From NCBI GenBank assembly GCA_964016885.1, contig OZ024740.1, positions 239,444,001 through 239,508,000 on the forward strand: a stretch of 64,000 bases of DNA, in the 5' to 3' direction. Made by a program: the position numbers and the translations under genes. Shown one piece after another: positions 28,718 to 62,184 of this stretch. This DNA is from Eledone cirrhosa (taxonomy: Eukaryota). Positions within the stretch are counted from its first letter, which is position 1. Every line of letters starts with the position of its first letter. Under the pieces are notes generated by a model. It was not told where the DNA came from, did no database searches, and saw only the letters and a list, made by a program, of their open reading frames with translations.

Positions 28718-28940
28718 GGCGGTGGGTTGGCAGTATCGATAGAGCATCGGACAACATGCTTTGTAGCATAGAGTTACGGCCCTTTGTGTAATGAGTTCAA
28801 ATCCCGCTGAGGTTAGCTTTGCCTTTCATCATTACAGGGTCGATGAACAAAAGAAACAGTAATACACTGAGGTCGATTTAATCGACTTTCCCCTCCCCTC
28901 AAAATGTCTGACCTTGTGCCTATAGTAGAAATCATTATTA
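28718..28940 (+). mobile_element. Family-1 SINE (longer variant) whose (TTA)n tail hosts Tx1 copy A
   Basis: A/B boxes are present and the copy ends CCTTGTGCCTATAGTAGAAATCATTATTATTT. Confidence 0.88.
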
Positions 28941-28953
28941 TTTTTATTATTAT

Positions 28954-31100
28954 TGGCGAGTTACTTGTGAAGACGTGATATTGTGAGATCCGAAAGGTTT
29001 TTGGTTTTAAGTTGTTTGAAATTGTTATTTGTAGAATATTTTTGTTGTCAAGTGTGACTAAGGCACTATATATTGCCTTCTGAAAAGAAGATCAAAAAGA
29101 TATTTGGACTTCGGCTCAGATATCGAAACTTTAAACAAAAATCTTTTCTTATAAACAAATAAACACCGGTTCAACATTCGGTCAAATGAACAGTCACTGT
29201 TCTACTACAGCAGTAACAGCAGCAAATGTGCTAAAGACAGTATTGCCAACAGAGCACGCTTATTTCGTGAATGTATATTTTCCGAAATTAACGCCTTCAC
29301 CACCATCAAAAGTACCACAAAATATCTTATCAAAGAAACCAAAAAGCAATACCACTCCTCCATCAGCGAGGCTATGTATGGTGTCATATTGTACAATTAG
29401 CGCAAAAATACGCCGGGTGGAGTGAGCATCGGAGTCCCAGATACAAACGGTTTTGGGACATGTATGGGTACAAAAAACTCACATCATGCGTGGAAGAAGA
29501 TATGGCACCGCGGGCGTTTTCTTTGCAACCCCATAGGAAGCTCACTCTGGTCACGAGCTACTGCAGACAAAGGCTCGTAAGAGTGCCAATACCCATGTTT
29601 CATCGAAGATGAGACCCAAATCTTGGAAATAATTAAAATAAAACAGGAAAACTGGTCCGGATCAGGAATGGAGCTCCTGATCCAAACGAACCAAAAGAAC
29701 ATCCAATAAATTTCAGAAGTAATAGACTTCGATGACGGCAACCACCTCATTATGACGTCGAGGGTAGAAGGCCAAGATGTCACGTGTGTGGGGACAAAAT
29801 AACCTAAAGGCCTTCTGCCCTCAGGAATTGTACGAGGTGGCGACGAGAGCAAAAATTAACCAGAAGTCAGTTAACCTGCAGCTCGGCACCTGGAGAGCAG
29901 GTTCATGCCGTCCAACAGCGTTGTCAGGTGCAGGACGGACGAACCGATTAAATTGCTAGAGGTCTACGTGGAGGCTAAACATACCATGGCTAATGATGCG
30001 GAAAATGCGCTAAGGCTATGGCTTCTCCAGCTCTCCCTTGAGGGTAAACAAGTGTGGTCACCATTTGCTAGACGCGCTTTTCTCCAGCTCGTTTCCTTGA
30101 CGGAGCTGCAGTCTTGGGTCAAGCGAAGACCGAGAGGAAGCGCTTGGAGACTGGAATGTCTTCAGGCGGTCACAGCCCTGTCAATCGGGCACTGTAATCG
30201 GTGGAAACTCCACCTTGGCGTTTTATAGAGGGTTAGTGGTGAGTAAGAGTGGCGACGTCCTAGGGGAGACTCTGGACGTCGACGAAAATCAACTAGCCCA
30301 GCTGTTCTAGAGAACTCTTGGGCCGGGGCCCATTGACAACTACCAGAAATCCTTGGCCTGGTAGTGCTACCGAGGAGCTTTGCCAGTTCGGGATAATCTC
30401 TACAGGCATGGAAGTGTCGTCAGCAGTACTTGTCCGAGATGCGCACAGAGCCACGAAAATGTCCTGCACGCACTCGTCCAGTGTCCGAGCATTGCTGACT
30501 TTTAGGTTTATGTCAAACACCTGATGTCGCATGTAGGACGGATCCAGTTATCAGCAGATTCCATCGTGAAGATTGCCCCGCCGGCTTCCTTTAGTCGGGA
30601 AGGACAGGCAGTGTTTATCCGCCTTGTGGCCATGGCAAAAGAGATTGTGTGATGGACACGTTTGAAAGGGCTGAAGACGAGCGCTTACCTCTTCGGTGAA
30701 GCCCTGATTAACTTTTTCAAATTTCATTTGAAAAGGAAAATCAGGGTGGAGAGAGAAGTGCTCCCTTCCAAGCAATTTGTTGAAAGATGGGTGAGAGAAG
30801 CAAACATAGCCCGAGTAAATGGTCCTGCTCTGAGTATGCGCCTGTAGATTGGAGGTGGAAAACAGGGGGAGGCACTTGCTCTCCTGGTGGTTATGGTCAC
30901 CATGGCATTTCTGTGGGCTTTCTCTACAAGTAATACTCGGAAGTCTCCCCACTATTGGGGAAGTTTCATTTTCTTTCCTTTGTTATTGCTTTTTTTTCTT
31001 TACACGCAGAAATGCCCATTTGTACCATCCTGTACTGTCCTGTCCTGTCCTCAATGTTATACTTTATGTCAACCCTTGTGGCTAATAAAGAAAGCATTAT
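28954..31100 (+). mobile_element. Tx1-type LINE copy A (old, with large internal deletions)
   Basis: ORF1 remnants lie at about 29400-29820 and ORF2 C-terminal remnants at 29830-30847 (KINQKSVNLQLGTW; LKTSAYLFGEALINFFKFHLKRKIRVE). The 3' UTR ends CCCTTGTGGCTAATAAAGAAAGCATTATT. Confidence 0.88.
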
Positions 31101-31529
31101 TCTTATTGAGTTTTGTAGCTTGCTTGAAGCATTGTTGAATAGGAAACACAAATTTAAATTTTGAAAACCAAAACAATGCGTTATGAAGAATGTTAAATTG
31201 CCAAGATAACAAAAGAATATTACCTTAGCAAATTTAATGATCCGAAATATTTTTGGGTTTAAAAACCCATTATGAAGGGAGTAACCCTATGAGAGACATA
31301 AAAATCGATCGGATAGACTTACTTGTTGGAGAGCAGATTTAAGTTAAATGAAATGAAAAGACGTTAAAATTTCAAACGCGCACGTTGTGAAATGTATGAT
31401 ATATGCATGATATATGCATGTGTGTGCATGAATGTTTGTATGCGTGTGATTGAATATAAGTTTATATAGTGAAAGATGTGTGCGAATATGTATATAATAA
31501 AATATGTTTGTGATATATGTATGTGTATG

Positions 31530-31712
31530 TATCGGTAGATCGTCGTACACCATGCTTCGTAGCATAGAGTTAAGGCTTTGCGTTCTGATTTCAAATCATT
31601 ATGGGTTCGATAAAATAAAGTACCAGTAATACAATGGTGTAGATTTAATCGACTTTCTCTTTCCTCCTAATTGTTAGCCTTGTGCCTAAATCAGAAACCA
31701 TTATTATTATTT
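31530..31712 (+). mobile_element. Diverged family-1 SINE with a (TTA)n tail at the left edge of the main array
   Basis: GATAAAATAAAGTACCAGTAAT...CCTTGTGCCTAAATCAGAAACCATTATTATTAT. Confidence 0.8.
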
Positions 31713-32808
31713 ACAATTATCTTAGTATATTGGCAGTTTCCATTAGTACTATCTTTTGTATTTCTCCTGGGATTTGCGATAAGTAATCATTAGACCCCTT
31801 AGGTATCATTCCCAGAGCGCCTACAACCACTGGTATTGTTTTAGTTCTCAATTTCCACATTTTTCCAATTTCTATCTCCAGGTCCTTATACTTGTCCAAT
31901 TTTTCAAATGTTTTTATAGATACATTCTTGTCTATTGGAACAGACATATCAATTAGCAGGCATACCCTCTTTTTAAAGTCCTTCAATATTATATCAGGTC
32001 TATTTGCATCTATTTTTCGGTCTGTTTGGATGCTAAAGTTCCACAAGATTGAGATGTGATCTTTTTCAAGTATGGGAGGTGGTTGATGCTCCCACTAATT
32101 CTTTTGATGGGGCAGGTCAAAATGCTTACACATTATCCAATATATGTATTGTGCAGCTCTGTCATGCCTGTTTAGGTATTCGGTTGGAGCTATAGGACTG
32201 CACATTGAAATTATATGGTCAATGGTCTCTGGTTGTTTTTTGCATACACGGCATAATGGGCTGCATCCATTTTTTATTATGTTGGCTTGGTAATTTTTTG
32301 TTGGCAGACACTGATCTTGGGCTGATATAATCAGTCCTTCAGTCTCCGATTTCAGTCCAGAGGATGCCAACCACTGATGGGTTAAAGTTTTGTCAACATC
32401 AGGGTTGTTAGCTCGCTCTGGGTATTTTCCATACAGAGGCTTTTCTTGCCATTTCTTAGCCAGTTTCTGTAGCAGTTCTTTCTTTGCAGTTACTTTTACC
32501 TGCTTTGTTTTTCTGTGTTTTCCATTTCAGCAGTAAATGGGACTTCTGAAATTTGTAGTCCATTACTGTATCTTTGTGCATCTTTTGTAATGGAGAATGA
32601 TCTTTTGATGCTTTCGTGTTTCAAAACGAGTTTGATCATCCAATCATGTGATTCCCTTAGATATGTAGATAATCCAATTGTTGCAGTTTTCAACGCAATG
32701 TCTAACTGGATTAACCCACGTCCTCCTTCTTTCCTAGGGAGATATATTCTATCTATATCTGCCTTAGGGTGATGCATTCCGTGCATGGTTAAGAATTTTC
32801 GAATTTTT

Positions 32809-32810
<2 letters not shown>
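31713..32810 (-). pseudogene. Second, diverged R4/Dong-like family; 5'-truncated and disrupted
   Basis: ORF pieces HPKADIDRIYLPRKEGGRGL, LKSETEGLIISAQDQ..CRVC..ETIDHIISMC..RHD and NRPDIILKD..K..KYKDL..PVVVGALG. TTA runs lie at both ends. Confidence 0.9.
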
Positions 32811-32873
<63 letters not shown>

Positions 32874-32881
32874 GTTGTTAT

Positions 32882-33973
32882 TCCTTGAATCTCAGTCATT
32901 GATGTTGGTTAACTGGAAAGTCCGTTGGATTGAATATCAAGCCACTACCTGCAGCCTCAGATATTCAGGACGTATCGGAGGGTTCTTGCTGTTCCAAGCA
33001 AGCATGCCTTTTGAAGCGTTCCAAAAAGCGTGAAGGGGCCGATTTTCTTTAACCATCCCTGGAAACTTTTGGAGATAGTCCCCAGTGCGCCTATGACAAT
33101 CGGGATCACTTTGACTTCATGGCAGTTCCAAATCCTTTTCACCTCCCACTTTAGGTCCTGGTATCGGTTAATTTTCTCCCTCTCCTTCTCTTGCACTCTC
33201 GTGTCGAACGGGCAGGCCACATCCACAATCAGACACGATCTTTTTTCTTTGTCCACAACCACCAGGTCAGGTCTATTGTGTTCCAGTTTTTTGTCCGTCT
33301 GTATCCTAAAATCCCACAGCACCTTCACCTGATTGTTCTCCATCACCGCCTCTGGCCTATGCTCATACCATTTCTCAGAATGTGGTAAATTGTTTACTTT
33401 GCACAGGTGCCAGTGGATCACCCTGCCCATCACATCGTGTCTCCAGCCCTTATAGTGGGTCTGGGCTAGGTGTTTACACTCGGACACAATGTGAGCCACA
33501 GTCTCCTCTCTCTCTCCACAGATCCTGCACAGTGGGCTAGCCTCCTCCTTGTAAATATGGTGCTTCAACCACTTCGTTTTGAGGGCCTGCTCCTGCGCAG
33601 CCATTAGCATTCCTTCTGTAGCCTTTTTGAGGTCTCCTCTTCTCAACCAGTTCCATGTCTGTGGATCTCTAAATTCAGTTTTCTCAAAGAAGGTACTATG
33701 AAGGGATTTTCCCTTAAGGCTGCTCTTCCTCCTTGATGTTATTTCCTCCTTGGACATCCCCTGGCCTACTGTCCCCTCCTTCAGTACAGCTCTGAGCATT
33801 GGCTCCTTACTATAGGTCACGTATTTGTATAGGTTGTTTTTCTCCATCTGAACACAGTCCTCTATGCTGATAAGACCTCTTCCACCCTCAGATCTCCTTA
33901 GGTAGAGTCTATCGACATCACTCCTCTTGTGGAACATGTTGTAGATAGTCAATAGCTTCCTAGTCTTCCTATC

Positions 33974-33977
<4 letters not shown>
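32882..33977 (-). mobile_element. Dong-like copy 1, 5'-truncated (~1.1 kb)
   Basis: Near-identical to the 3' 1.1 kb of the full copy. Bounded by (TTA)n at 32810-32882 and 33976-34037. Confidence 0.95.
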
Positions 33978-34022
<45 letters not shown>

Positions 34023-34036
34023 GTTGTTATTGTTAT

Positions 34037-35668
34037 TCCTTGAATCTCAGTCATTGATGTTGGTTAACTGGAAAGTCCGTTGGATTGAATATCAAGCCAC
34101 TACCTGCAGCCTCAGATATTCAGGACGTATCGGAGGGTTCTTGCCGTTCCAAGCAAGCATGCCTTTTGAAGCGTTCCAAAAAGCGTGAAGGGGCCGATTT
34201 TCTTTAACCATCCCTGGAAACCTTTGGAGATAGTCCCCAGTGCGCCTATGACAATCGGGATCACTTTGACTTCATGGCAGTTCCAAATCCTTTTCACCTC
34301 CCACTTTAGGTCCTGGTATCGGTTAATTTTCTCCCTCTCCTTCTCTTGCACTCTCGTGTCGAACGGGCAGGCCACATCCACAATCAGGCACGATCTTTTT
34401 TCTTTGTCCACAACCACTAGGTCAGGTCTATTGTGTTCCAGTTTTTTGTCCGTCTGTATCCTAAAATCCCACAGCACCTTCACCTGACTGTTCTCCATCA
34501 CCGCCTCTGGCCTATGCTCATACCATTTCTCAGAATGTGGTAGATTGTTTACTTTGCACAGGTGCCAGTGGATCACCCTGCCCATCACATCGTGTCTCCA
34601 ACCCTTATAGTGGGTCTGGGCTAGGTGTTTACACTCGGACACAATGTGGGCCACAGTCTCCTCTCTCTCTCCACAGATCCTGCACAGTGGGCTAGCCTCC
34701 TCCTTGTAGATATGGTGCTTCAACCACTTCGTTTTGAGGGCCTGCTCCTGCGCAGCCATTAGCATTCCTTCTGTAGCCTTTTTGAGGTCTCCTCTTCTCA
34801 ACCAGTTCCATGTCTGTGGATCTCTAAATTCAGTTTTCTCAAAGAAGGTACTATGAAGGGATTTTCCCTTCAGGCTGCTCTTCCTCCTTGATGTTATTTC
34901 CTCCTTGGATATCCCCTGGCCTACTGTCCCCTCCTTCAGTACAGCTCTGAGCATTGGCTCCTTACTATAGGTCACGTATTTGTATAGGTTGTTTTTCTCC
35001 ATCCGAACACAGTCCTCTATGCTGATACGACCTCTTCCACCCTCAGATCTCCTTAGGTAGAGTCTATCGACATCACTCCTCTTGTGGAACATGTTGTAGA
35101 TAGTCAATAGCTTCCTAGTCTTCCTATCCATTTCTTTTTGTTCAGCAACATTCCATCTTAGAATTCCCGCACTGTACCTAATAATAGACACAGCTCGGGA
35201 ATTTACTGCGCTTATGGCATTTCTGCTGTTCAGATGTGACTTCAATACGCTCCTTACTCTCCGAATGTATTCAGTTCTTAACAATTCCTTCATTTTTTTG
35301 TTCTTTATGCCATCAGCCTCCAGAACGCCCAAATACTTGTATCCTTCCTCAGAGTCAATTTATCCTTTATCATCTCACCTGTTGGTATCTGGATCCCGTT
35401 ACTTCTGCTCAACCTACCCCTCCTCATCACAATGACTCCACATTTACCAATACCAAACTGCATACATATATCACTGCTGAAAATACGGACAATCAGGCTG
35501 TATCTACAATCAGGCACGATCTTTTTTCCTTGTCCAAAACCACCAAGTCAGGCCTATTGTGTTCCAGTTATCCGTCTGTATCCTAAAATCCCATAGCAAC
35601 TTCACCTGATCGTTTTCTATCACCGAATCTGGCTTATGCTCATACCACTTCTCAAAATGTGGTAAATT
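34037..35668 (-). mobile_element. Dong-like copy 2, 5'-truncated, with a ~170-bp extra fragment of another subfamily at its 5' end
   Basis: ORF 34112..35332 matches the C-terminus of the full ORF. 35497-35668 is an out-of-place RLE-region fragment. Confidence 0.93.
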
Positions 35669-35776
35669 AATTATTATTATTATTATTATTGTTATTGTTA
35701 TTCCTTGAATCTCAGTCATTGATGTTGGTTAACTGGAAAGTCCGTTGGATTGAATATCAAGCCACTACCTGCAGCC

Positions 35777-38700
35777 TCAGATATTCAGGACGTATCGGAG
35801 GGTTCTTGCCGTTCCAAGCAAGCATGCCTTTTGAAGCGTTCCAAAAAGCGTGAAGGGGCCGATTTTCTTTAACCATCCCTGGAAACCTTTGGAGATAGTC
35901 CCCAGTGCGCCTATGACAATCGGGATCACTTTGACTTCATGGCAGTTCCAAATCCTTTTCACCTCCCACTTTAGGTCCTGGTATCGGTTAATTTTCTCCC
36001 TCTCCTTCTCTTGCACTCTCGTGTCGAACGGGCAGGCCACATCCACAATCAGGCACGATCTTTTTTCTTTGTCCACAACCACTAGGTCAGGTCTATTGTG
36101 TTCCAGTTTTTTGTCCGTCTGTATCCTAAAATCCCACAGCACCTTCACCTGACTGTTCTCCATCACCGCATCTGGCCTATGCTCATACCATTTCTCAGAA
36201 TGTGGTAGATTGTTTACTTTGCACAGGTGCCAGTGGATCACCCTGCCCATCACATCGTGTCTCCAGCCCTTATAGTGGGTCTGGGCTAGGTGTTTACACT
36301 CGGACACAATGTGAGCCACAGTCTCCTCTCTCTCTCCACAGATCCTGCACAGTGGGCTAGCCTCCTCCTTGTAGATATGGTGCTTCAACCACTTCGTTTT
36401 GAGGGCCTGCTCCTGCGCAGCCATTAGCATTCCTTCTGTAGCCTTTTTGAGGTCTCCTCTTCTCAACCAGTTCCATGTCTGTGGATCTCTAAATTCAGTT
36501 TTCTCAAAGAAGGTACTATGAAGGGATTTTCCCTTAAGGCTGCTCTTCCTCCTTGATGTTATTTCCTCCTTGGGTATCCCCTGGCCTACTGTCCCCTCCT
36601 TCAGTACAGCTCTGAGCATTGGCTCCTTACTATAGGTCACGTATTTGTATAGGTTGTTTTTCTCCATCTGAACACAGTCCTCTATGCTGATAAGACCTCT
36701 TCCACCCTCAGATCTCCTTAGGTAGAGTCTATCGACATCACTCCTCTTGTGGAACATGTTGTAGATAGTCAATAGCTTCCTAGTCTTCCTATCCATTTCT
36801 TTTTGTTCAGCAACATTCCATCTCAGAATTCCCGCACTGTACCTAATAATAGACACAGCTCGGGAATTTACTGCGCTTATGGCATTTCTGCTGTTCAGAT
36901 GTGACTTCAATACGCTCCTTACTCTCCGAATGTATTCAGTTCTTAACAATTCCTTCATTTTTTTGTTCTTTATGCCATCAGCCTCCAGAACGCCCAAATA
37001 CTTGTATCCTTCCTCAGAGTCAATTTCCTTTATCATCTCACCTGTTGGTATCTGGATCCCGTTACTTCTGCTCAACCTACCCCTCCTCATCACAATGACT
37101 CCACATTTACCAATACCAAACTGCATACATATATCACTGCTGAAAATACGGACAGTGTCAACAAGCACATCCAACTCCTTCTCACTTTTCCCGAAGAGCT
37201 TAAGATCGTCCATGAAGAGGAGGTGATTGATGGTAAGCTCTCCCCTTCCCAACTTGTATCCTGCTCTCACTTTTCGCAGCATAATGGTCAAGGGCATCAG
37301 GGCAAGGACAAACAACAGAGGGGACAGGCTATCTCCCTGGAAGATACCTCTCTTGATCTTCACGCTTCCCAAGGATACTCCAGTTGATGTCAACTCTGTC
37401 TCCCAGGACCCCATACTCCTGCCCAGCAACTGTCTGATGTTATCTGCCACCCTGAAGATCTCCAGGCTTTTGGTGATCCAGGAATGAGGCACCATGTCAA
37501 ATGCCTTTCTGTAGTCTATCCATCCCATGGCAAGATCAGTGTGTCTCCTCCCGCAATTCCCCATTACCATCTTATCAATAAGCAACTGGTCCTTTGTACC
37601 ACGTGACTTCTTTCGGCATCCTTTCTGTTCGTCCGGCAACAAGTTGTTTGTGTGGAGGTGATGGTAGATTTCCTCAGACACAATGCTCGTCAACAGTTTC
37701 CACATTACGGGCAGACATGTGATAGGTCTATAGTTGGTAACATCATTACCCTTGATTCGGTCTTTCATTATCAGAACTGTGGTACCTTTTGTCAACCACT
37801 CTGGCACCTCACCCGACACCAAGCAGTCATTGAACATGGCCGTCAGCTTCGGGTGGAGGGATGTTAAATGTTTAATCCAATACCCCTGCACACCATCTGG
37901 GCCTGGTGATTTCCAGTTGGTTAGTTTTTTGGCTTGCCCCTTAAGAGTTTCAACTGTGATACTCAAATCAGTCTGTTGCTGTGCCTGCTCACCGATCTCC
38001 CTCTGTACTGTCTCAATCCACCCTGCCTGGGCATTGTGTCTAACATCCTGCTCCCATATTCCTCTCCAGAATGTTTTAGCTTGTTCCGCCCCAGGGATCA
38101 AGTCGTTGCCTCTTTCTTTCCCCTCAAGCTGTCCAAACAGCATCTTCTGGTTGTTGTCGAACATGCGGTTCTGTTTATACTGACTGACTCTGTTCTCGTA
38201 TCGCCTGATTTTGGCACTCTTTGCTACAATGCGTTGCTTCAATTCCTCTATGATAATATTTAGCTTTTTACTCCTAGTTTTGTATTTTATTTCCAGTCTA
38301 TTTTTAGTGCCTATGTTTTTTAGTGTCCCATTCAGTAGTGACTCAAGCTTTCCTATGTCATTTCTCATTTCCTCGATTTGCCCACTCAGTCGCTTCTTCC
38401 ACCACGGCTCTGCTCTTTCTTGTCTGTTGTTTCCTCTCGCTTTTATACCAAGTAGTTTCCTCACCGTATTTGCTGTTGCTTTGAGGATATTGTTGCACTG
38501 GTGAAGACTCCTCGCCTCAAGGTATGGGATGACTTTGTTTACCTTAGCTGTTGTTTCTTTTAACTTTTTCCTGTCTACAAATCTTAGGTTCATAGGTCTC
38601 CCACTATCATTGTTCAACTCATCTACCACTAAATTTAGGATGTCAACCGAATCTTGTCCTAGCCCGTCAGCATTCATCTCCTCAGTGGCCGTATCTCTGT

Positions 38701-39169: not shown

Positions 39170-39742
39170 TTCACCGTTATTCGAACTGTTTATGTTCGAT
39201 ATTTAAACACTCTTATCGAGGATTGGCGAATGTATGTTTACATAGCCATCTGTGGATCCGCCATCCCACTTGGCCCTTGTGTGGCATTATCACCACGCTG
39301 TATACGGACACACATAAACAAACAAACACACGGGCAGAAAGGGCCCCAAAAATGAATAAGCATAAGTTTCATTGTAATGTAGTATTCGAATGTCTGACTT
39401 AGTTTTTGTTTTTTAAGTTTTACTTTTTCCCCCCTCTTCTCTGTCCGTCCGCCTGCTTCTCTCTTCATTCTTATTTTCTTTACGTTTTTGGGGTGTCTTT
39501 TTTTGTTTTTGTTTTTCTCTGTTTGTTTTTCTCGTTTTTTGCTGTTGTTGCTGTGCTGCTTTTGTTGTTTGTTTTTTCTTTTTTCTTTTGAGTCTATCTA
39601 TATATTTTGATGCCTTCCTCTTTGTTAGTAGTAGGAATTCTATAATGTGGAAGTGGCAGCCAGCAGAGACTGGCGGCGTTGGCGATACTGAGACAGTGGT
39701 GGTGGTGATGTCGATACCGAGGCAGTGGTGGCGGTGATGCGA

Positions 39743-40386: not shown

Positions 40387-40560
40387 TTATAACAATATAT
40401 TTTGGGTCCGAATTTTTTTGGGGCTCAAGCCGGGTGCTTTACGTAGCATTTGTACTAAGAGTTGTTATTTCACAAATGATTTAAATATGTTAAAAATTCA
40501 AAACTTACGGGAGCGATTTCATGACCTCCGTCACCTCGTGCGTCTTCTTCCCTTATTCCC

Positions 40561-40601
<41 letters not shown>

Positions 40602-40700
40602 GAATGCCATGGTTGACGGAGGCTCGGCTCTGTAAGGTATAGTAAATTTTAACCCTTAAAACAATTGTAAATTGTTTAAAACTTGAACCAAATTGTTGAT

Positions 40701-40766: not shown

Positions 40767-40814
40767 TCAGTTATTGGGGTTTTGTACCCAAAATTTCATT
40801 TTAAACAAAAAAAC

Positions 40815-49594: not shown

Positions 49595-49641
<47 letters not shown>

Positions 49642-52600
49642 GTACCAACGAAAATATCAACAATGACATCAATACCTGTAATAGCGATCTCAGCACCACA
49701 AGTAAGACCAGTAGCGGCAGCAATAGTGGTGCTGCTGAAAAAGGGACCACTTCTTTTGCAGGTGTCGCCCAAAATATCGAGACAGTGTTAGTCGCAGAGG
49801 AGGAGATGGCAGTCGCAAGGGCCATGGTGACAAGAAGCGCCAATAGAGTCTCCCTGAAATTTCCACCCGATTTTTTCAAGGACCAGCAGCTACGGACGGT
49901 GACTTACCGCACCGTAAGCAAAATCTCACATCGGGTGGAGAGAGCCACGAGGGCTCAAATCCCAAAGGCCTTGGGGTGCGTCTGGGCACGCAAAACCCAC
50001 ATCACCCGAGGCAGAAAGTACGCCACAGTAGACGTACTTTTCGCCACCCCCCAGTCTCACTCTTTGGAAACCCTGAAGAGTGAGGAGATAGTCTTGGTGC
50101 CCTCCTACTGCGGGCAGAAAATTGTGAGGGTCAAAGTGACCCAGGTCCCACCCGACGTGCCTATACCTTGACTGGCCGCGTCTGTCCTTGCTGGAATCGA
50201 GAACAGGACGACCATGCTGCAAGTAGAAAAAATAGGGAGAGAGAACTGGTCAGGTATAGACATGCAAATGCTTATACAAACTGACCGGGAATGTATCGAC
50301 GCTATCCCCGATATCATAGACATCGAGGAAGGACTCCAACTCCCTATAAGTGTAGAAGGAAGACGGCCAAAATGTTTTCTGTGTGGGTCGAAGGGTCACC
50401 TCAGGGCCTTTTTCCCGCAGAAGGCAGCGAAGAAGAAGGCCCCTCTTCTTCCAATACCTGGTCCGCTGCTACCATGAACAGGGCAGGCAACAAACGCAGA
50501 AGCCCCTTCCACGGTGAGTAGGAGGGAAGCGTCCGTAGCACCCGTACAAAGGCCACGGACAACTAAAGCAGCATCATCAGTGGCGGCAACACCAATAGCT
50601 ACATTTGAAGTAGCTACACCAGCGACAAAATGGCCGAAGAGGGCTCCACTACCACCACCAACAGCCGTGGAGCACATACCCCTCCCAGACGCCACAGAAT
50701 CCGACATGGAGTTTGAGGCGGGAGTGAAGTAGCAAACGGTCTGCCACAAAAGACAAAAAAGAAAAAAACCCTTAGATTCACCTTCCAAAAGCAAAGGCAT
50801 ACAAAGAGGGGGTAAAGGCAGCAAGGAAACTTGCAGCAACACCACCACCATCACCACCACAAGCACCACTCACAACAACAACCACACCACCACCAGCATC
50901 ACCAAAAACACCAACAACGCAAACACACCAAACAGCAACAAGAAGAAAACAGCAACAAAATCACCCCTCCCCCCAAAAAAGTACACAGCCATAAACATGG
51001 CAAAAAAAGAACTCATACAATATATAAAGCAGCACACAGACATCACAGAAAAAAACTACTACACCCCACCAACACCAAGAACTCTCCCGACAAACATAAG
51101 CATCATTGAAATCTCAATAGAACAGTACAAACCTTTAAAACAAAAATTCCCCAACGCTGTTGGAAATTTCAGAGGGTCGGTTACCAAGAGGATATACACT
51201 GACATACTCTTGGTAATACCCATGACCAGCGAAAGGGACGGTTCTACTGTCCCTTCACCACACGATCAAGGTAAGTGACCCTTTCTCACTTGACCCGTTT
51301 CTCGTCCAACATGGCCGTACTTAGAATAGGCAGTATAAATGCACGTGGCCTGGGGTCATCTTGGAAGCAAGGTCACCTGCTCAACGACCTCAGGTCACTA
51401 AACATAGATGTGGTGGCCATCAGTGAGACCAGAATCTCCGAAGCACAAGCCTTCGCACCGATCTTCGCCGGCTACGATGTATACACATCTCCCAGCCGTC
51501 CAGGATAGGGGGGGGGGGTGCCGTCCTTTTTCGGGGAGGCTTGGATCTCGCCATACGGGCCATCTTCCTGGACCCAGAAGGTAAGTCGGTGGTGCTGGAT
51601 GTGACCAGCAGCGAAGGCAATGCTTTCAGGCTAGTAGCCGTCTACGCCCCAACAGGGGTAGGACGGCCAGATTTCTTCAGACGTCTAGAGACCTTTCTTG
51701 GAACGTCCCGCTCTTTAGTGTTAGTGGGCGACTGGAACGGTATCTTGGATGCACGCTGGGATTGTGTGGGGCTAGTGGATAGGAGAGGAGGGTGCAAGAG
51801 CCTCACCAACCTGCTCAGACGTTTTGAACTGTCTGACAGGTATCGACTGGATCACCCGAATGTGACAATGTGGACATGGACAAACCGCATCGGGTCATCC
51901 AGATCGTATCTTGATAGGGTATTCTGCAGAGAACTAAATCAGGCTAGTATAAGTTGTCCACAATTTAAAATAGTCGACTACACAGACCACAAATTTGTGA
52001 TCTGTGAGATCGAGATAGACAGACTTCATAGACAAGGGCCTGGTTACTGGAAGCTGAACGCGTCTTTCCCGGCGCGCAAAGCCTACAGAGACCGGATTAG
52101 CGTATTAGTTAAGCGGGCGTTGACGGGAGCGGTCGTCAACAACAGGTGGTGGTTCGCCCTGAAAAGGGCAATTAAAGTAGAGTCGATTAGGTTTAGCAAA
52201 GGAGCAGTGATAGAGGAAAATAGAGTAGAGGGAGAGCTAGTCAGAAAGCTAGAAGAGGCGTTTAGGACAGGCATCGCAACCGACGTGCTTGCGGCGAGAT
52301 TGGCACTCGACCAATTCTTCAACGCAAAACACGAAGGTTGCGTTGTCAGAGCTAGAGCGCGTGCTCTGAAACACGAAGGGACAAAAGCCGTCCAATGGCC
52401 CCATGTGGCAGAGGCGCGACGTGGCAACAAAGCCACAATTCGGTCTTTGTCTGACCAAAATGGGTGCGTGATGCTTGAACCCGAGCGAATGTGTGAGGCT
52501 TTTCAGCAGCACTTTGCTGAACTGTTCGGGAGCAGCGGTGGCCCGGATCGGGGCGTGGATTTCAGTGCAGGCCTCGACGGACTGCCTCGGCTCTCGACGA

Positions 52601-54964
52601 CCGCAGCACAGTGTTGCGAAAAGCCAATAACAGCCGGTGAAATACGGGTAGCGATGGCTAACTGCACAAGGGGTAAATCGCCAGGTTTGGATGGTCTGCC
52701 TTACGAGCTTTATGCATTTATGCCAGACTTGTTCGGTAACCTCTTGGCACACGTCTACTGCAACTGGCAGCAGAACGGGAGCATTCCCAGTTTTGTGAGC
52801 CGGGGAGCAGTAGCGCTGCTGAGAAAAGACCCGAACAAGGGGGACGTTATCGATAATTTCAGGCCCATAACCCTGCTAAACGCAGAGTTCAAGATTTTGG
52901 CCAAGGTGTTAGCAACGAGGTTGGCGCTTGTCGTTGGTGGTCTGGTGGGAGAGGCGCAGACATGCGCCATTCCGGACAGATCCATACACGACAACCTCCA
53001 CCTCATGCGATACATCATAGAGAGGGTGGTTAAGGAACCTGGCACGGGTGGGTCCCTGATCAACTTGGATCAATCCAAAGCATTCGATAGGGTCGACCAT
53101 CGTTACCTGGCGGCGGTCCTCGAGGCAGCCGGTTTCGGGCCCGTTTTGAGGGGTTGGATCGCAGTAATGTAAAGCGATATCTGCTCAGTTGTGAGGGTGA
53201 ACCGTCCTCTGTCGCAGCCGTTCAGCATCATGCGCTCAGTCTGCCAGGGTTGTCCGCTCTCGTCCCTCATGTGCGTATTGGCTCTCGAGCCGTTACTGCA
53301 CAAATTGTGGACGATGAGGGGCGTCCCACGCAAACTAGGATGCGGGAAATCCGAGTCGGCTTGCGCCGACGACTTCACCGTGGTGGTGTCAAGCACCAAA
53401 CACGTCCAGATGCTCGGCACCGCTCTCAAGGAATACGAAGCCGTGACAGGAGCAAAGATAAACCAGGAAAAGTCGGTGGGCTTGCAGCTCAGCACCTGGA
53501 GAGGCAAGTCCATGCCGTCCGACAGCGTCGTGGGGCGTTGGACGGACGGACCGGTTAAATTGCTCGGGGTCTGGTTCGGACCGGACCTCCAGATGGAGAA
53601 AAACTGGAACGAGGTGACGAGCAGGGTGGCCTCCCTAAACCCAGAAATGGGCCGAGAGGAAGATGTCCCTGAAAAGCCGGGCGGAGGTGGGGAATTCGTA
53701 CATCGCATCCGTCATCTGCTACCGCCTCACCGTCGTCCCTTGCTCCAGCCCAACTCTCACCAAATGGAGCGCCTCCTCTTCCGCTTCTTGTGGAAGTGAC
53801 GCCCTCCCATGGTCAGACGATCCATCTGCTGTCAACACCCGTTGCGTGGAGGACTGGGCATGCCATGGCTGATGATGCGCAAACATGCGCTGAGGCTGCG
53901 ACATCTCTGGTGCTTCCTTGATGGTGAACAGGTGTGGTTGCCGTTCGCCAGGCACGTTTTCCCACAGCTCGTCTCCTTGACGGAGCTGCAGTCCTGGGTC
54001 AGAAAAAGACCGAGGGATAGTGCTTGGAAACTGGAATGTCTCCAGGCGCTCACTGCCTTCTGCCAGCTGGGCCCCAGAATCGGTGGAACATTCACCTCGG
54101 CGTTCTATAGAGGTCTAGTGGAGGGGAAGAGCGACAACATTCTCGGAGAGATTCTGGGAGTCGAAGAAGATCAGCTGTTTGCTCTCTTCCGGAGAACTTT
54201 CAGCCCGGGGCCTATGGATAATTTCCAAAAATCCCTGGACTGGCAGTGCTACCGGGGAGCGCTGCGGGTTCGAGAAAAGCTCTACAGGCACGGAAGTGCC
54301 ATCAGCCGAGCCTGTCCGAGATGCGCGCAGAGCAACGAAACCGTCGTGCACGCACTCGTTCAGTGCCCAAGCATTGCTGACTTGTGGAGCTATGTCGAAC
54401 AGTTGCTGTCGCGTGTAGGACTGATCCGGTTGTCGACTGAGTCCATTGTGCAGATGGTCTCGCCGTCTTCCTTCGAGGTGGCCATGGCGAGAGAGATTGT
54501 GTGGTGGACAAGCTTAAAAAGGGTTAAAGACTGACACTTTCCTCTTCGGCGAATCCCTAATTAACTTTATTAGGTTTCACTTAAAGAGGAAAATCAGGGT
54601 GGAGATGCAAGTGCTGCCTTCTAGCAAGTTTGTTGTAGGTGGGTGAATGTAGGTACGTCTGTAGTTTGAGAGATGGAAAAATTGAGAGAGGGCGTTTGCC
54701 CTGGTGGTCAGGGTGGCCGTGGTCTTATGTGTGGTTTTCGCCACGAGTAACCCTCGTAGGTTTCCCCCTATTAGGGAACTTTTCATTGTTTCAATTTTCA
54801 TTTTTTTGTTTATATATATATATATGTTTCTATGTCCTTTTTTTTTCTTTTCTATAAATAATAAAAAATATTTACACGCACAAAACCCACATCGTACCGT
54901 CCTGTACCGTCCTGTGCCGTCTGTAATGTTTTTCTTGATGTCAGCCCTTGTGGCCAATAAAAAA
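49227..54964 (+). mobile_element. Tx1-type copy C: diverged subfamily lacking the 5' UTR, with multiple stops and frameshifts
   Basis: ORF1 pieces at 49227-51278 and ORF2 pieces at 51311-54660 are homologous to copy B. It ends CCCTTGTGGCCAATAAAAAA(TTA)n. Confidence 0.93.
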
Positions 54965-55003
54965 TTATTATTATTATTATTATTATTATTATTGTTGTTA
55001 TTA

Positions 55004-55366
55004 CTCTTTGAGTCTCAGTCATTGATGTTAGTTAACTGGAAAGTTTGTTGAAATGAATATCAAGCCACTACCTGCAGCCTCACATATTCAGGACGTATCG
55101 GAGGGTTCTTGCTGTTCCCAGCAAGCATGCATTTTGAAGCGTTCTAAAAAGCGTGAAGGGGCCAATTTTCTTTAACCATCCCTGGGAACTTTTTGAGATA
55201 GTCCCTAGTGCGCCTATGACAATCGGGATCACTTTGACTTCATGGCAATTCCAAATCCTTTTTACCTCCCACTTTAAGTCCTGGTATCGATTAATTTTCT
55301 CCCTCTCCTTCTCTTGCACTCTCGTGTCGAATGGGCAGGCCACATCCACAATAAGGCACGATCTTT
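55004..55366 (-). mobile_element. Dong-like copy 6, a ~360-bp 3' fragment
   Basis: ORF 55080..55349 corresponds to the RLE C-terminus, with TTA runs on both sides. Confidence 0.92.
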
Positions 55367-55393
55367 ATTATCATTATTATTATTATTATTATT

Positions 55394-58300
55394 GACTGCT
55401 ATGGTTGACGGAGGCTCGGCTCTGTAAGGTATTGTAAATTTTGACCGCTATAACAATTGTAAATTGTTTAAAACTTTAACCAACTTGTAGACAAAAATAC
55501 CCTCCTCCTCGTGAGAGGGGTCTTTCTGCCCGTTATTTGGCCCTTCGGGGTTAAATAACCGCTTATTGGAGTTTTGTGCCCAATATTTATTTTAAACCCA
55601 AAAAAACAACATGGCTACGAAAAAGAATTCTCATAGGTCACTTCCACTCATTCCGTCTATTTCTTCCTCAATCGTCACTACAGTAGAGAGAAGATTGTCT
55701 CCCCCCCCTTCTTTAAATGTGTCTCTCTCCCTCCCTTCTCTTTCGCAAGCGACGACAGAAAAGAAAAATCTCGTGCAAAGCGTGCAAGATTTCTCCACGA
55801 CGACGACGACAACGACGAAACAGGTGTGCGGGAAATACGAAAACCCATTTCATTCGTCTGACGTCAGGAATAATAGCTGTAGCAGCCGTAATAACAACAG
55901 CAACAGTGACAAGGAAAACAACAGTAGCAGCCGCAACAGCATCAGCAGCAGCATAAACAACAACAGCATTAGCAGCAGCAACAACAACAACAACCACAGC
56001 AACAGCGGTGGCGGCAGTAGTCGTAGTACCTGCAGCAACAACAAAAGTAACAGCAGCTCTGACGACAACAACAACAGCAGCAAAGAAAAACCAATCTCGT
56101 TTGCAGGTATCGCAAAGAACCTGGAAACCATCCTCATAACAAATGAGGAATTAGAGGAAGCGAAGAAGATGGTGACAAAAACTGGACACCGAGCAATCTG
56201 CAAGGCAGCGGAAAAGTTTTTCGAAACCCAACAGCACTGTACGGTCACGTACCGTACAGTAAGCACAAAACCCCGTAGGGTTGAAAGAGCCACAGAGGCT
56301 CAAATACAGAAAGCCTTGGGGTCTGTGTGGAAGCGGAAAACGCACATCACCCGAGGCAAGAAATATGCCACCGTGGACGTGCTTTTTGCCACACCCCAGG
56401 AGGCAAAGGCTCAATCCTTAGTGACCCTAAGGAGCGAGGAAATGGTGTTGGTGCCCTCCTACTGCGGGCAAAAAATTGTGAGGGTCAGACTGACCCACGT
56501 CCCCCCCGGGATGGCCCCTTCTTGGCTGGCCGCGTCTGTCCTCGTCGGAATCGAGGACAAAACAACTGTACTGCAAGTACAGAAAAAAGTAAGAGAAGAT
56601 TGGGTCGGCACCTCCATTGAGATGTTAATCCAAACCAACCAGGAGTGCATCGAAGCTATTCCGGATGTGATAGACTTCGATAACGGCACTCAACTGCCCA
56701 TAAGTGTTGAGGGCAAACGCCCGAAATGCTTTCGCTGTGGATCGAAGACTCAACACAGGGCTTCTGCAACGAAAAGACCCTGAGAAAGGAGAAACCCCCC
56801 TCCTTCCGAAACCGGCTCCACGGCTACCAGCAACAGGACAAGCGGCAACCAGGAACGATAGGTCCGTGGTACCCATACCCAGGCCACGGAAATCAAAAAC
56901 AGCAGCAGCAGTGGAAGTATTAACAACAACAACAGCAATACCAAATGCAGCTGCAACAGAGACTCCAGTGCAAACATCACCAACAACAACAAGAGTGGAG
57001 CTGGTACCCCTCCCCGACCTCACAGAATCAGACATGGAGTGTGAGGTGGGAGAGGGATGGCAAAAGGTCGTAAGAAGGCACAAACGCAGAAGCAGCGCAT
57101 CGTCGCCTTTGAAAAGGGAGGAAAGAAATGAAAAAACGGTAAAGGCTACTGCAAAGAGACTCACAGCAGCAACACCACCAACACCATCACCACCCACACT
57201 AGCACCACCATCACCACCGGCGACAACCCCACCGCCAACAACACCTTCAACACCACCACCACAAGCACCAACATCGCAAACACAACAACAAACACACACA
57301 CCCAGCAACAACGACAAGAAAATAGCAGAACCACACCCCACCCCCAGAAAAACAAATGCACGGCAATAAATACACACAACAAGAAACTAATGACTTACAT
57401 AATTGAACACACAGACATTTCACAACACGACTACATAATACCAGCACCAATCAAAACGCCAACTAACATAATACTGCTAAAAATAGCACAGAAACAATAC
57501 ACAAACATTAAAACGAAATTCCCCAATGCAGTTGGTGATTTCAGAGACCTAGGAGGGACACTCAACCGAAGGGTATATTCGGACATACTCATAGAAGAGC
57601 CGACGACCAGCCGAAGGGACGATTCAACGGTCCCTTCACCAGACGATCAAGTGAAAAGGGATGGAAAAACCATCCCTCCTCTACGAAAAGTACGGTAAGT
57701 GGTCTTTCCCATCTTTTCCACTCTATTTTAAACATAACCTCACACAGAATAGGCAGCATAAATGCGCGTGGCTTGGGGTCGTCATGGAAGCAGGGTCACC
57801 TGCTCAACGACCTCAGGTCACTAAACATAGATGTAGTGGCCATCAGCGAGACCAGAATCTCCGAAGCACGGGCCTTCGCACCGATCTTCGGCGGCTACGA
57901 TGTGTACGCATCTCCCAGCCGTCCTGGATCGGGGGGAGGAGTTGCTGTGCTTTTTCGGAGAGGTTTGGAACTCGCCATACGGGCCAACTTCCTGGACCCA
58001 GAGGGTAAGTTGGTGGTGCTGGACGTGACCAACGGAGACGGGCAAGCTTTCAGGCTAGTGGCCGTCTACCCCGACAGTAGCAGGGCGGCCTGATTTCTTC
58101 CGGCGTCTGGAGACCTTTCTTGGAACGTCCCGCTCTTTAGTGTTAGTGGGCGACTGGAACGGGATCTTAGATGCACGCTGGGACTGTGTGGGATTAGCGG
58201 ATAGGGGTGGAGGGTGCAAGAGCCTCACCAACCTGCTCAGGCGTTTTGAACTGTCTGACAGGTACCGATTGGATTTCCCGAATGTGCCAATGTGGACTTG

Positions 58301-60779
58301 GACAAATCGCATAGGTTCGTCCAGATCATATCTAGATAGAGTATTTTGTAGGGAAATAGATAGGTCTAGCATAGGCTGTCTACAATTCAAGATAGTCAGC
58401 TACACGGACCACAAATTCGTGATCTGTGTGCTTGACTTAGATAGGCTTCATAGACGAGGACCCGGCTACTGGAAGCTAAACGCGTCCTTACCAGCACGCA
58501 AGGCCTACAGAGACTGGATTAGCGAACTAGTTAAGCGGGCGTTGACGGGGGCCATCGTCAACAACAAATGGTGGTTTGCTCTGAAAAGAGCGATTAGAAT
58601 AGAATCCATTAGGTTTAGTAAGGCTTTAGCAATAGAGAAAAATAGAGCAGAGGGAGAACTAGTTAGAAAATTAGACGAGGCGCTTAGCAAAGGCATTGCG
58701 ACCGACGTGCTTGCGGCGAAATTGGCCCTTGACCAATTCTTCAATGCAAAGCACGAAGGCTGCGTTGTCAGAGCTAGGGTGCGTGCTCTCAGACACGAGG
58801 GGACGAAAGCCGTTCAATGGGCCCGAGTGGCGGAGGCGCGTCGTGGCAACAAAGCCACGATCCGGTCTTTGGTGGACCACTCGATCCCGGGCAAATGTGT
58901 GAAGCTTTTCAGCGACACTTCACTCAGCTGTTCGGGGGCAGCGGTGAGCCGGGTCGAGGGATGGACTTTAGCGTCTACCTCGACGGACTGCCGCGGCTCT
59001 CAGCCACTGAGGCCGAGTGTTGCGAAAAGCCGATAACAACCACTGAAGTAAGGGAGGTAATGACTGGGTGCACAAGGGGTAAATCGCCTGGTTTGGATGG
59101 TCTGCCCTATGAACTTTACGTACAGATGCCAGACTTGTTTGGAGGCCTCTTGGCGGACGTCTACTGCAACTGGCAACAGAACGGGAGAATTCCCAGTTCT
59201 GTGAGCCGAGGAGCGGTGCCACTGCTAAGAAAGGATCTGAACAACGGGGATAACATAGATAATTTCAGGCCTATAACTCTGCTAAACACAGAGTTCAAGA
59301 TTTTGGCCAAGGTGCTAGTAAAGAGGTTGGCGTTTGTCGTTGGTGGTCTGGTGGGAGAGGCGCAGACATGCGCCATTCCCGACAGATCCATCCACGACAA
59401 CCTCCACCTCATACGATACATCGTGGAGAGGGTAGCTAGGGAACCTGGCACGGGTGGGTCCTTGATCAATTTAGATCAGTCGAAAGCTTTCGATAGGGTC
59501 CACCATCGTTACCTAGCGTCAGTCCTGAGGGCGGCTGGCTTTGGGCCCGTCTTCAGAGGCTGGATCGCTGCCATGCACAGCGACATCTGGTCTGTGGTGA
59601 GAGTGAACGGTCACCTTTCGGAACCGTTCAACATCATGCGCTCGGTCCGCTAAGGATGTCCCCTCTAGTCCCTCTTGTACGTATTGACTCTCGAGCCATT
59701 ACTGCACAAACCGGAGACGTTGAGGGGCATCCCGCGCGAACTAGGATGCGGAAGATCTGTGTCAGCATATGCGGACGATGTCACCGTAGTGGTGTCGAAC
59801 GCCAAACACATCGAGGCGATCGGCACTACACTAAGAGAATACGAAGCGGTGACAGGAGCAATGATCAACCAGGAAAAGTCAGTGGGCCTGCAGCTCGGCA
59901 CCTGGAGAGGCAGGTCCATGCCGTCCAACAGCGTCGTCGGGCGCTGGACGGACGGACCGGTTAAATTGCTAGGAGTCTGGTTCGGTCCGGACCTCCAGAC
60001 GGACAAAAACTGGGACGAGGTGACGAGCAGGGTGGCTTCTCTCACCCAGAAATGGGTGGAGAGGAAGCTATCCCTGAAAGGACGAGCGGGGGTGGCTAAC
60101 GCGTACATCGCGGGCATGTCCGAGATGAGCGCAGGGCGACGAAACCGTACTGCACGCACTCGTCCAGTGTCCGAGCATCGCTGACTTGTTGGTTTATGTC
60201 GAACACCTGCTGTCATGTGTAGGACGGATCCAGCTATCAGCTGAGTCCATCGTGAGGATTGCCCCGCCCTCTTCCTTTAGCCGGGAAGGGCAGGCAGTTT
60301 TTATCTGTCTGGTGGCCATGGCGAAAGAGATAGTATGGTGGGCACGTTTGAAAGGGCTGAAGACGAGCACTTACCTCTTCGGTGATGCCCTGATTAACTT
60401 TTTCAAATTTCATTTGAAAAGGAAAATCAGGGTAGAGATGGAAGTGCTCTCTTCCCAGCATTTTGTTGAAAGATGGGTGAGAGAAGCAAGTATGGCCCGA
60501 GTGAATGGGCCTACTCTGAGTGTGTGTCTGTAAATTAAATATGGAAAACTGGGAGAGGGCACTTGCCCTGGTGGTCAGGGTCACTGTGGCCTTTTAATGG
60601 GCTTTCTCCACAAATGTCCCTCGGAAGTCTCCCCCCTATTGGGGAATATTTCATTGTTATTTTTTTTATTACATCCTCTGTTTTTTTTACACGCAGAAAT
60701 GCCCATTCGTACAGTCCTGCATTGTCCTGCACTGTCCTTAATGTCTACCTTATGTAAACCCTTGTGGTTAATAAAGAAA

Positions 60780-60781
<2 letters not shown>
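55394..60781 (+). mobile_element. Tx1-type copy D: same subfamily as B, 5'-complete but inactivated
   Basis: Same 5' UTR as B, with an ORF1 frameshift near 56750 and the ORF2 ATG mutated to ATA. ORF2 has frameshifts and a ~600-bp deletion at about 60110. A (TTA)n tail follows at 60782-60845. Confidence 0.95.
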
Positions 60782-60845
<64 letters not shown>

Positions 60846-60846
<1 letters not shown>

Positions 60847-60884
60847 TGGGTAATTGCTGGCCTTGTGCCAAAAGTAGAAACAAT
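60846..60884 (+). mobile_element. 3'-terminal ~40 bp of a family-1 SINE inside the (TTA)n tail of Tx1 copy D
   Basis: (TTA)n-CTGGGTAATTGCTGGCCTTGTGCCAAAAGTAGAAACA-(ATT)n. Confidence 0.9.
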
Positions 60885-62184
60885 TATTATTATTATTTTA
60901 ATGGTATTTACGTGTTTTATTCCATCCGGGCAGCAACTTCACAATCTCCTTTTTAATGTTTACGTTAGAAAGAAACGTTTACTTAGTTTGTTTGCCCATG
61001 CCCTCCCGCCAAGGTTGGATCCACATAGTTAGTTTCAATTTAACCACAAATACTCCATCTGCAAAGAAAGTTCTGGAGAAGTCGAGTATTCCCTCTGTAA
61101 ACACACCAACGGTGACATATGTAAACAGCTACAGGGATGAAAGCTCGATAAATTCACACGTTCCTCTACAATAAGTGTTGACATAAAATCCACTCAAACA
61201 GCATCTCATGTCATGTGTTACCTGGGCCGACGACTTTCATTGAATATCTCTTTAAAGATTATATAACTATTACATTCATATACAGCCAAACACCGATTCT
61301 CCCAACAGCAATTATCCTAATTTCAGATAATTGGAACAAGATCTCAAGGTAAATATTTAATCAGACATACAGTATATAACCTGAATAATGCTCGCACTAT
61401 CAATTCCTTTCTTGTTTCTCTTTTTGAGAGTGTGGGGGTGGGGGATGGTATGGGTATGAGGTGGGGTAGGGTGGAGGTAGGAATGGGTATGGGGGGGGGG
61501 GGGTCCCTTAAAATGATTAAAAGTCAGTTTGAATAACTGAAGAGCATAAACAAAATGTTACAAGAGAGAAGCGTTATACACACTGTTGCGACGATTCCGT
61601 ATTTTACTTAGGGTTATCAAAAGTACCACATGTCGGACAGTCCGCTCATTTGATCTTTGCCTGTCTCTTCATACAAGGAAAATATTTTAAACACATTAAC
61701 ATGGCTGACATGTAGAAGGGTTTAAATTTTAAAAGCATGACAAAATCAGATGTGCTCACTCTACGGTAGTTCTGGGCAGCAGTGGTATAGGAAGGCTTTT
61801 ACCATTCATGATATTGTTCTTGAATTTTCTGCCTTTCCTATCACTCTTCCTAACACAATACAGTACACATGAAAAGCGACGGAAAATGACCGAATGCGTC
61901 CAAAAGTGACTGCCAGCACGAAACGCTCCCTCACACCTCTCTAGCTACGTATGTGTTATAAGCAAGTTTATTCCTGTCTATGAAGAAAAGGGAAGACCAT
62001 TGACAGTCAAACATTGAAAAATATAAGCTTTTATAATGTCAGAATCATGATGAATAGGTATCCTAGCCTCCAAGTCAATACATTTTATCAATTGAATGGA
62101 TTAAATTATTTTGTAAATATGCTCCATAGAAAATAGAAAATTAATTTGAGGTTTACGATGGCTAAAATCTCAACAATATATTAA

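Follow-up and report, generated by a model that had tools for sequence, protein, structure and literature searches.

Contig OZ024740.1 of Eledone cirrhosa (NCBI GenBank assembly GCA_964016885.1; G000:C1 in our labels) carries, between positions 239,444,001 and 239,508,000 of the forward strand, a chain of retrotransposon copies in which elements of two unrelated enzyme classes occupy one three-base repeat, (ATT)n, in opposite orientations. This 64,000-nucleotide stretch of a 3.0-Gb genome is referred to here as the window, and the order of the copies in it is that of the assembly. The elements of one class encode a reverse transcriptase (RT) with an apurinic/apyrimidinic endonuclease (APE) and are Tx1-like; those of the other combine an RT with a restriction-like endonuclease (RLE) and are Dong-like. 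Both are long interspersed elements (LINEs), and they are accompanied by short interspersed elements (SINEs) with ATT tails. Labels of the form L### denote sampled loci of the same genome outside the window.

Counting runs of at least four ATT units as tracts, we found a continuous chain from 31,700 to 60,897 (29.2 kb), joined by 12 tracts (Table 1). On the plus strand each of the 12 tracts in 31690-60900 reads ATT, never AAT, and no tract of this length occurs within 1-26,600 or 60,900-64,000 of the window. The chain consists of seven tract-bounded RLE-RT copies on the minus strand, one of them belonging to a second family, three APE-RT copies on the plus strand, one extra, tract-less RLE fragment of 175 bp and one SINE stub; its left end is a SINE tail and its right end the SINE stub. 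Were 12 pieces oriented independently, the chance of such sorting would be about 1 in 2,000 by arithmetic.

A first-pass annotation of this DNA had described a nested array of about 30 kb starting at 28930. The continuous chain starts only at 31,700, and the old APE-RT copy at 28955-31095 falls outside it, in the tail of another SINE about 600 bp to the left of the chain. The copies stand side by side as serial neighbours and none lies inside another, so "nested" does not describe them. Repeat tracts were found at the boundaries listed in that annotation, which had placed (TTA)n at nearly every one; the only tract-less junction of the chain is at 35491. Its seven RLE-RT copies, all on the minus strand, and four APE-RT copies, all on the plus strand, were recovered, and the RLE outlier it had placed at 26711 is a 3' stub on the minus strand. 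A second minus-strand remnant, RLE-like and by a TTA run at 27226-27408, had been missed.

Compared with other loci of the genome, the chain copies have best matches of about 85% to 100% identity. The young RLE copies are 98.6% identical to one another and 99.3-99.5% identical to copies elsewhere, and their 5' ends differ. Because they match distant copies better than each other, the sequences indicate that the chain arose by serial insertion and not by segmental duplication, as the earlier reading had also held.

The opposite polarity of APE and RLE elements on one repeat is genome-wide and near-strict. In a whole count of the heads (5' ends) of APE subfamily A, 2,421 of 2,536 lie directly after (ATT)3 and one lies after (AAT)3. 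Heads of RLE family 1 (RLE1) follow a tract of ATT polarity at three places genome-wide (five overlapping matches), and for these heads the figure available is 1,329 first-look candidates and not a whole count. Samples of best matches lay on tracts of the expected polarity throughout (APE 3' ends, APE heads and RLE heads, 30/30 each). Position-ordered samples were drawn in chromosome order and are blind to the flanks; here RLE 3' ends ran into (AAT)n in 30/30 cases and truncated RLE 5' junctions lay on (AAT)n in 13/14. For the corresponding APE sample, 67 of the first 80 listed copies were read by eye (60 at 7.7 kb and 7 short ones from 3-kb loci), four of which were set aside as chimeric, interrupted or running off the stretch. 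All 41 full-length APE heads in this sample follow ATT.

A junction table was compiled from 879 kb of merged loci with 307 tracts, in which 505 of 612 flanks could be assigned; since the loci were chosen by element ends, it measures polarity and not the share of all tracts that are occupied. Relative to ATT, 255 of 257 APE ends are sense, 193 of 194 RLE ends antisense and 47 of 49 SINE ends sense. Restricted to 5' ends, where a tail cannot account for the repeat, the figures are 126/128, 99/99 and 19/19, respectively. Of the two APE ends scored as antisense, one is a spurious match caused by low complexity. Where an APE and an RLE copy flank a single tract, they run in opposite directions in 84 cases and in parallel in 2, one of these 2 likewise being a spurious low-complexity match. 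This tabulation of flanks and orientation bears out the proposal that two unrelated enzyme classes use one repeat with opposite polarity. The wording "strictly opposite" holds in the window and nearly so across the genome, the rare exceptions being one truncated APE copy (L146), the three RLE heads and 2/49 SINE ends. The claim that insertions leave repeat on both sides is also supported. The suggested safe haven, in which neither element lands in the other's open reading frame (ORF), is compatible with the absence of any LINE-inside-LINE insertion from the 483 kb of APE sequence and 181 kb of RLE sequence covered, within loci of 3-8 kb that long inserts would escape.

Table 1. Retrotransposon copies, SINEs and (ATT)n tracts in the window
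Position	Strand	Feature	Remarks
26695..26824	-	Outlier RLE 3' stub (26711-26814) between two TTA runs	76-84% to RLE1 3' ends
27226..27408	-	Outlier decayed RLE2-like C-terminal remnant beside TTA run 27234-27244	tblastn 40%, E 1e-6
28721..28954	+	SINE	Impure ATT tail 28934-28954, landing site of old APE copy
28955..31095	+	Old APE-RT copy, subfamily C type head	Large internal deletions; outside chain; degenerate ATT tail 31096-31107
31529..31711	+	SINE	ATT tail 31700-31711, chain left end
31712..32809	-	RLE-RT family 2	5'-truncated, without last ~160 nt
32810..32873	+	(ATT)n tract	
32874..33974	-	RLE-RT family 1, young	5'-truncated
33975..34022	+	(ATT)n tract	
34023..35669	-	RLE-RT family 1, young	5'-truncated (to 35490); tract-less join to 175-bp older-subfamily piece (35494-35668)
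35670..35690	+	(ATT)n tract	
35691..40560	-	RLE-RT family 1, full-length	Intact ORF 35777-39202; 325-bp tandem repeat in 5' untranslated region (UTR)
40561..40601	+	(ATT)n tract	Head-to-head junction
40602..46632	+	APE-RT subfamily A, full-length	Intact ORF1 40767-42914, ORF2 42782-46369
46633..46704	+	(ATT)n tract	Tail-to-tail junction
46705..48863	-	RLE-RT family 1, older	5'-truncated, frameshifted
48864..48879	+	(ATT)n tract	
48880..49201	-	RLE-RT family 1	322-bp 3' piece
49202..49228	+	(ATT)n tract	
49229..54963	+	APE-RT subfamily B (77% to A)	Begins at ORF1, decayed
54964..54993	+	(ATT)n tract	
54994..55372	-	RLE-RT family 1	379-bp 3' piece
55373..55393	+	(ATT)n tract	
55394..60781	+	APE-RT subfamily A, older (95.5%)	Frameshifts; ~600-bp deletion at 60111
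60782..60845	+	(ATT)n tract	
60846..60897	+	SINE 3' stub, 37 bp	ATT tail 60883-60897; chain right end

The full-length APE-RT element has an ORF1 with a CCHC knuckle and an ORF2 with APE, RT and a C-terminal CCHC (PF03372, E 3e-14; PF00078, E 1e-28; PF13966, E 8e-8), and catalytic-type motifs are present. Among proteins of solved structure, human L1 ORF2p is its closest relative (E 2e-52 over residues 5-855), against E 1e-21 for R2, in the RT only. A CCHC zinc knuckle in ORF1 is a feature of the Tx1 clade, and ORF1 of subfamilies A and C contains one of the form C-X2-C-X4-H-X4-C. The element ends in AATAAA, a few bases and then the ATT repeat, with no poly(A), and all 40 scored matches to this 3' end are 100% identical. 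The nearest relatives are 39-44% identical, plus one at 79%. No sequence named Tx1 was among the matches of the homologue, Atlas and cluster look-ups; the name "Tx1-like" fits the architecture and the target and does not refer to a tree. Kojima's criterion for a target-sequence preference is more than 20% of flanks (PMC4494074; here and below, papers are cited for the parts available), and the subfamily-A heads after (ATT)3 lie far above it at 2,421/2,536. A metagenome scan returned only relatives of 22-34% identity, with an ATT/AAT run of at least 12 bp in 3 of 80 loci, and has no bearing on the range of the lineage.

Subfamilies A and C are 96% identical over their 3' 3.8 kb (from position 2265; window 40602-46632 against L156), and the DNA of their 5' UTR and ORF1 cannot be aligned. 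In the subfamily C 5' UTR (L156, about 150-185 bases in), a stretch like the SINE 3' end is followed by a short ATT run, and L170 has a SINE joined there. A third APE head type occurs in L139. In the subfamily-B copy, which is cut at the start of ORF1, the start codon spans the tract junction (49202-49231), and the tract is in frame with ORF1 as poly-Ile. APE copies are often found at compound (CTT)n/(ATT)n repeats (L149, L175, L052, L015, L202), and L141 lies in an (ACT)n run. A depletion of ATTAT inside the elements was considered and rejected: subfamilies A and B hold 0 copies, a value equalled by 18 and 28 of 300 shuffles, and there is no depletion in C or RLE1.

The full-length RLE-RT element has a single frame of 1,141 codons with an RT (PF00078, E 2e-22), a CCHC finger and a PD-(D/E)xK-type motif, and no APE. 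Its closest solved relatives are R2 proteins (E 2e-29). Family 2, represented by the copy at 31712-32809, shares about 41% amino acid identity with family 1. On the sense strand, (TAA)n stands at both ends of the element. A search returned 183 homologues; no sequence named Dong or R4 was among the matches of the homologue, Atlas and cluster look-ups, and the term "Dong-like" again fits architecture and target, not a tree. No Rfam ribozyme matched the 5' end, and our own descriptor of a hepatitis delta virus (HDV)-like ribozyme gave no hit either, a weak test as it lacked a positive control. The full-length elements of both classes look young, and exact 3'-end patterns occur genome-wide at least 7,481 times for APE subfamilies A and C and at least 4,108 times for young RLE1. 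The 5' UTR of the RLE1 copy contains a 325-bp unit in two copies that are 96% alike (39743-40390). RLE1 and the APE subfamily heads share a short motif ending in GTAAG, some 30-45 bases in (40500-40550 on the minus strand, 40602-40650; L139), at a score reached by 0/1,000 shuffles for head E against RLE1 and by 12/1,000 for A against RLE1; a role as splice donor or as part of an internal promoter is conceivable.

The SINE, which has the APE polarity and supplies many of the tracts, was absent from the first-pass annotation. The label rests on size, dispersal, target-site duplications (TSDs) and tail; its head gave no ARAGORN gene and no tRNA family match that would make it tRNA-derived. Among the first 30 head matches the tail could be located in 22, and three of the other eight lie in a satellite of the SINE head. 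The 3' flank begins with ATTAT in 21 of the 22, and 18 have a TSD of 14-20 bp, mostly in unique DNA. These duplications, starting at ATTAT, suggest a short recognised motif. The last 25-40 bases of the SINE resemble APE 3' ends, at scores reached, per 1,000 shuffles, by 0 for SINEb against subfamily F, 6 against B and 31 against A, and by 234 for SINEa against A and 16 against F. We infer that APE ORF2 moves the SINE. If so, the SINE signature implies that the recognised site is a short ATTAT and that a tract is a run of such sites. The 45-bp SINE head also forms long tandem arrays (G000:C1:10.316-10.355 Mb; L226-L229), which inflate its pattern count of 32,961. Another dispersed repeat with an ATT tail, of which the last ~110 bp are defined, shares the polarity of the APE element and the SINE (L186, L008, L188, L222, L240).

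At two impure sites an APE copy is flanked on either side by an identical stretch of 15-16 bp (L187, 16 bp; L205, 15 bp), against the 14-20 bp from ATTAT in the SINE. The ATT repeat at the APE 3' end can be as short as a single unit before other sequence begins (L157, L202, L141), and for this reason it is not an obligatory long tail.

In target-primed reverse transcription, the strand complementary to the element sense is nicked and primes synthesis. The sense strand of APE copies reads (ATT)n and that of RLE copies (AAT)n; given this opposite polarity, priming would take place on the AAT-reading strand for the APE element and on the ATT-reading strand for the RLE element. The chain is likely to have grown by serial target-primed insertions that started on opposite strands of the same repeat, and we consider opposite-strand serial insertion on a shared ATT repeat a probable account of the locus, with good though not full confidence. 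The strand is most probably chosen by the nuclease, and the register would follow from base pairing between the end of the RNA and the nicked strand. Strand choice by nuclease specificity is favoured by analogy with the telomeric elements TRAS1 and SART1, in which swapping the nuclease domain swaps the target (PMC7265360). The two nucleases would then nick opposite strands, although RNA-target pairing could choose the strand instead. From the SINE, the APE machinery would be expected to recognise the short ATTAT and to cut the second strand about 14-20 bp further on. Each insertion would leave repeat on both sides, so that targets multiply, SINE tails would seed new ones, and some same-direction neighbours may arise when a new cDNA finishes on an adjacent copy.

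Several observations weigh against so simple a scheme. Truncated APE copies are looser in their flanks: among 22 whose junction could be read, at least three ATT units precede 10, 6 follow a SINE tail or an ATT stretch that is short or impure, 2 follow (CTT)n, 3 have no repeat beside them, and one (L146) has the opposite polarity. In young full-length APE copies a 16-bp TSD is often missing at places where an impurity ought to make it visible (L157, L161, L197, L199, L202), and their 5' joint is therefore made differently from that of the SINE. Full-length APE heads always abut pure ATT in one register, which a single model of insertion does not accommodate; the APE RNA, or the cDNA being finished, may use the upstream repeat to close the 5' joint. 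Some copies that lack their 3' end stop at an internal site resembling AAT or ATT (window 31712, L072, L058), which shows that RNA-DNA pairing can place the start. In some arrays identical impure tracts recur at successive joints (L016-L018), pointing to duplication rather than fresh insertion. For the commonest pair, the link between SINE and LINE is weak (SINEa against subfamily A, 234/1,000), and an RTE or other partner is possible.

The ends at internal repeat-like sites would also be expected if polarity came from RNA pairing alone, with A/T-rich repeats nicked loosely on either strand and extended only where an end pairs with (AUU)n or (AAU)n RNA. TpA steps occur on both strands, RLE 3' ends carry variable AAT/AAC units, neither the APE nor the RLE family shows poly(A), and SART1 RNA can anneal to its target (PMC7265360). 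Pairing alone fits poorly, however, with APE 3' flanks reduced to one unit, with SINE insertions in unique DNA that have only ATTAT and a narrow TSD length in common, and with the altered target of the TRAS1/SART1 nuclease swap. We regard it as unlikely as a complete explanation; nuclease choice and RNA pairing are not mutually exclusive. Considerably less probable is the absence of any real targeting, whereby the elements write their own repeat at both ends and insert broadly, and clusters reflect survival in tolerant regions together with unequal recombination. The one register of full-length heads on pure ATT looks as if the RNA carried the upstream repeat, and identical tracts at successive joints or a neighbour-derived 5' end (L016-L018, L021, L169) would suit that view. 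Truncated RLE 5' ends, however, cannot carry such a leader and still lie on tracts in 13/14 cases; moreover, 201 of the 307 tracts have an element on both sides (in loci chosen by one element end), TSDs reveal a pre-existing ATTAT site, and neighbours differ in family and age. That the chain is a mis-assembly joining unrelated copies through ATT tracts seems hardly credible. All joints but one are indeed simple repeat, but the tracts measure merely 12-72 bp, the copies differ from one another in sequence and in where they are truncated, the same joints are found again on many contigs, and the polarity rule, as a property of each element end, would survive mis-joining.

Alongside opposite-strand insertion, arrays appear to grow by copying from neighbours, a process that, like the short ATTAT site, had no place in the first-pass annotation. 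In L021 (with L250) the 3' end belongs to the youngest subfamily, and the first 342 bases match an older downstream copy at all diagnostic positions. Impure tracts are duplicated exactly on both sides of an APE copy in L021 (60 bp), L169 (34 bp) and L016-L018 (with L247 and L248; 54 bp). Neighbour-templated completion of the cDNA or unequal exchange would give both these duplications and the L021 5' end. Neighbour copying may also lie behind the module swapping seen in subfamilies A and C, which share the 3' 3.8 kb and have unalignable 5' parts. As a tentative and rather doubtful extension, the dispersed microsatellite could host a community of three members: a Tx1-like lineage of invertebrates, as yet undescribed, whose ATTAT nuclease is strand-specific; Dong-like elements using the opposite strand; and the SINE, among the most abundant in this genome, as passenger of the Tx1-like element and main maker of new targets. 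The head-to-tail arrays would then serve as exchange sites, with 5' UTR-ORF1 modules swapped as new cDNAs are completed on a neighbouring copy.

The Dong half of this system is known. Dong, an RLE-type element of the R4 clade, targets TAA repeats in silkworm, mosquito and snail (Bombyx Dong, DongAg and DongBg; PMC3812793), with TAA upstream of its 5' end on the sense strand (PMC3774820), as in our RLE copies. Here, in contrast, at least two families about 41% identical share the target with each other and with an APE element, and the HDV-like ribozyme at the 5' end of Bombyx Dong (PMC3774820) was not found in our weak test. With the Tx1-like half, a habit already described reaches a new repeat. 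Recorded targets of Tx1 families are (TC)n (Kibi), (TTC)n (Koshi) and, in crocodilians, (TTCC)n/(TTTC)n (PMC4494074), and Tx1-1_ACar targets telomeric repeats (PMC10088271). The APE-RT of the present element shares with them its L1-group affinity and a repeat target; it differs in the target (ATT)n, the invertebrate host, the thousands of copies (7,481 3' ends) and the sharing with an RLE lineage.

TRAS1 and SART1 are both APE elements of one clade. These R1-clade elements insert in opposite directions into one tandem repeat, that of Bombyx telomeres, and form mixed arrays (PMC7265360, PMC10088271), much as the elements do here; theirs are confined to telomeres, whereas here the enzyme classes differ, and the target lies scattered and is renewed as elements insert. 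Keno (Tx1, APE) and Utopia (RLE) evolved the same U2 snRNA gene target in parallel (PMC4640811) and so provide an APE and an RLE element on one target. Their 3' flanks are identical and their orientation hence the same, the target is a low-copy gene, and the available part of that account describes no mixed array. In crocodilians, SINEU was assigned to its partner Tx1-Mar through a shared target preference (PMC4494074); the SINE described here differs in that its 3' end resembles the LINE over a short stretch and its insertions in unique DNA bear an ATTAT signature, and its partnership is putative. For cephalopods, the LINEs described as recently active in Octopus vulgaris include Dong-R4 and L1-Tx1 (PMC13282606, Table 1 for Dong-R4), in a paper whose main text, as available, does not contain the word "target". 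The accessible parts of PMC8967140 and PMC9115989 mention Dong-R4/L1-Tx1 LINEs without a target, and those of PMC4758252 and PMC4824008 describe octopus SINEs and name no LINE partner. Our literature search found no Tx1 family that targets ATT and no microsatellite occupied by APE and RLE elements in opposite polarity; it did not extend to Repbase Reports, subscription journals or the PMC4494074 supplement, where the target may be noted. Within that scope the APE target appears new, and the opposite-polarity sharing by two enzyme classes combines known precedents.

Every ingredient thus has a precedent, and no new class of element is proposed. The locus offers a natural side-by-side pair of active-looking APE and RLE enzymes on opposite strands of one three-base repeat. 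As intact young copies of both adjoin in the window, the parts played by the nuclease and by RNA-DNA pairing in the choice of target strand can be addressed in one assay. Self-renewing arrays would explain where part of the repeat load of a 3-Gb genome accumulates, and the abundant SINE gains a candidate partner.

The remainder of the window contains few features of note. The ORFs to the left of the array gave no credible Pfam family. Further SINE copies lie outside the chain at 25934-26455, 27005-27199, 28230-28338 and 62185-62373, three of which show, by eye, duplications of 10-17 bp starting with ATTA or ATAT. At 28366-28664, a 130-bp unit is present in 2.3 copies amid (TA)n and (TGTA)n runs.

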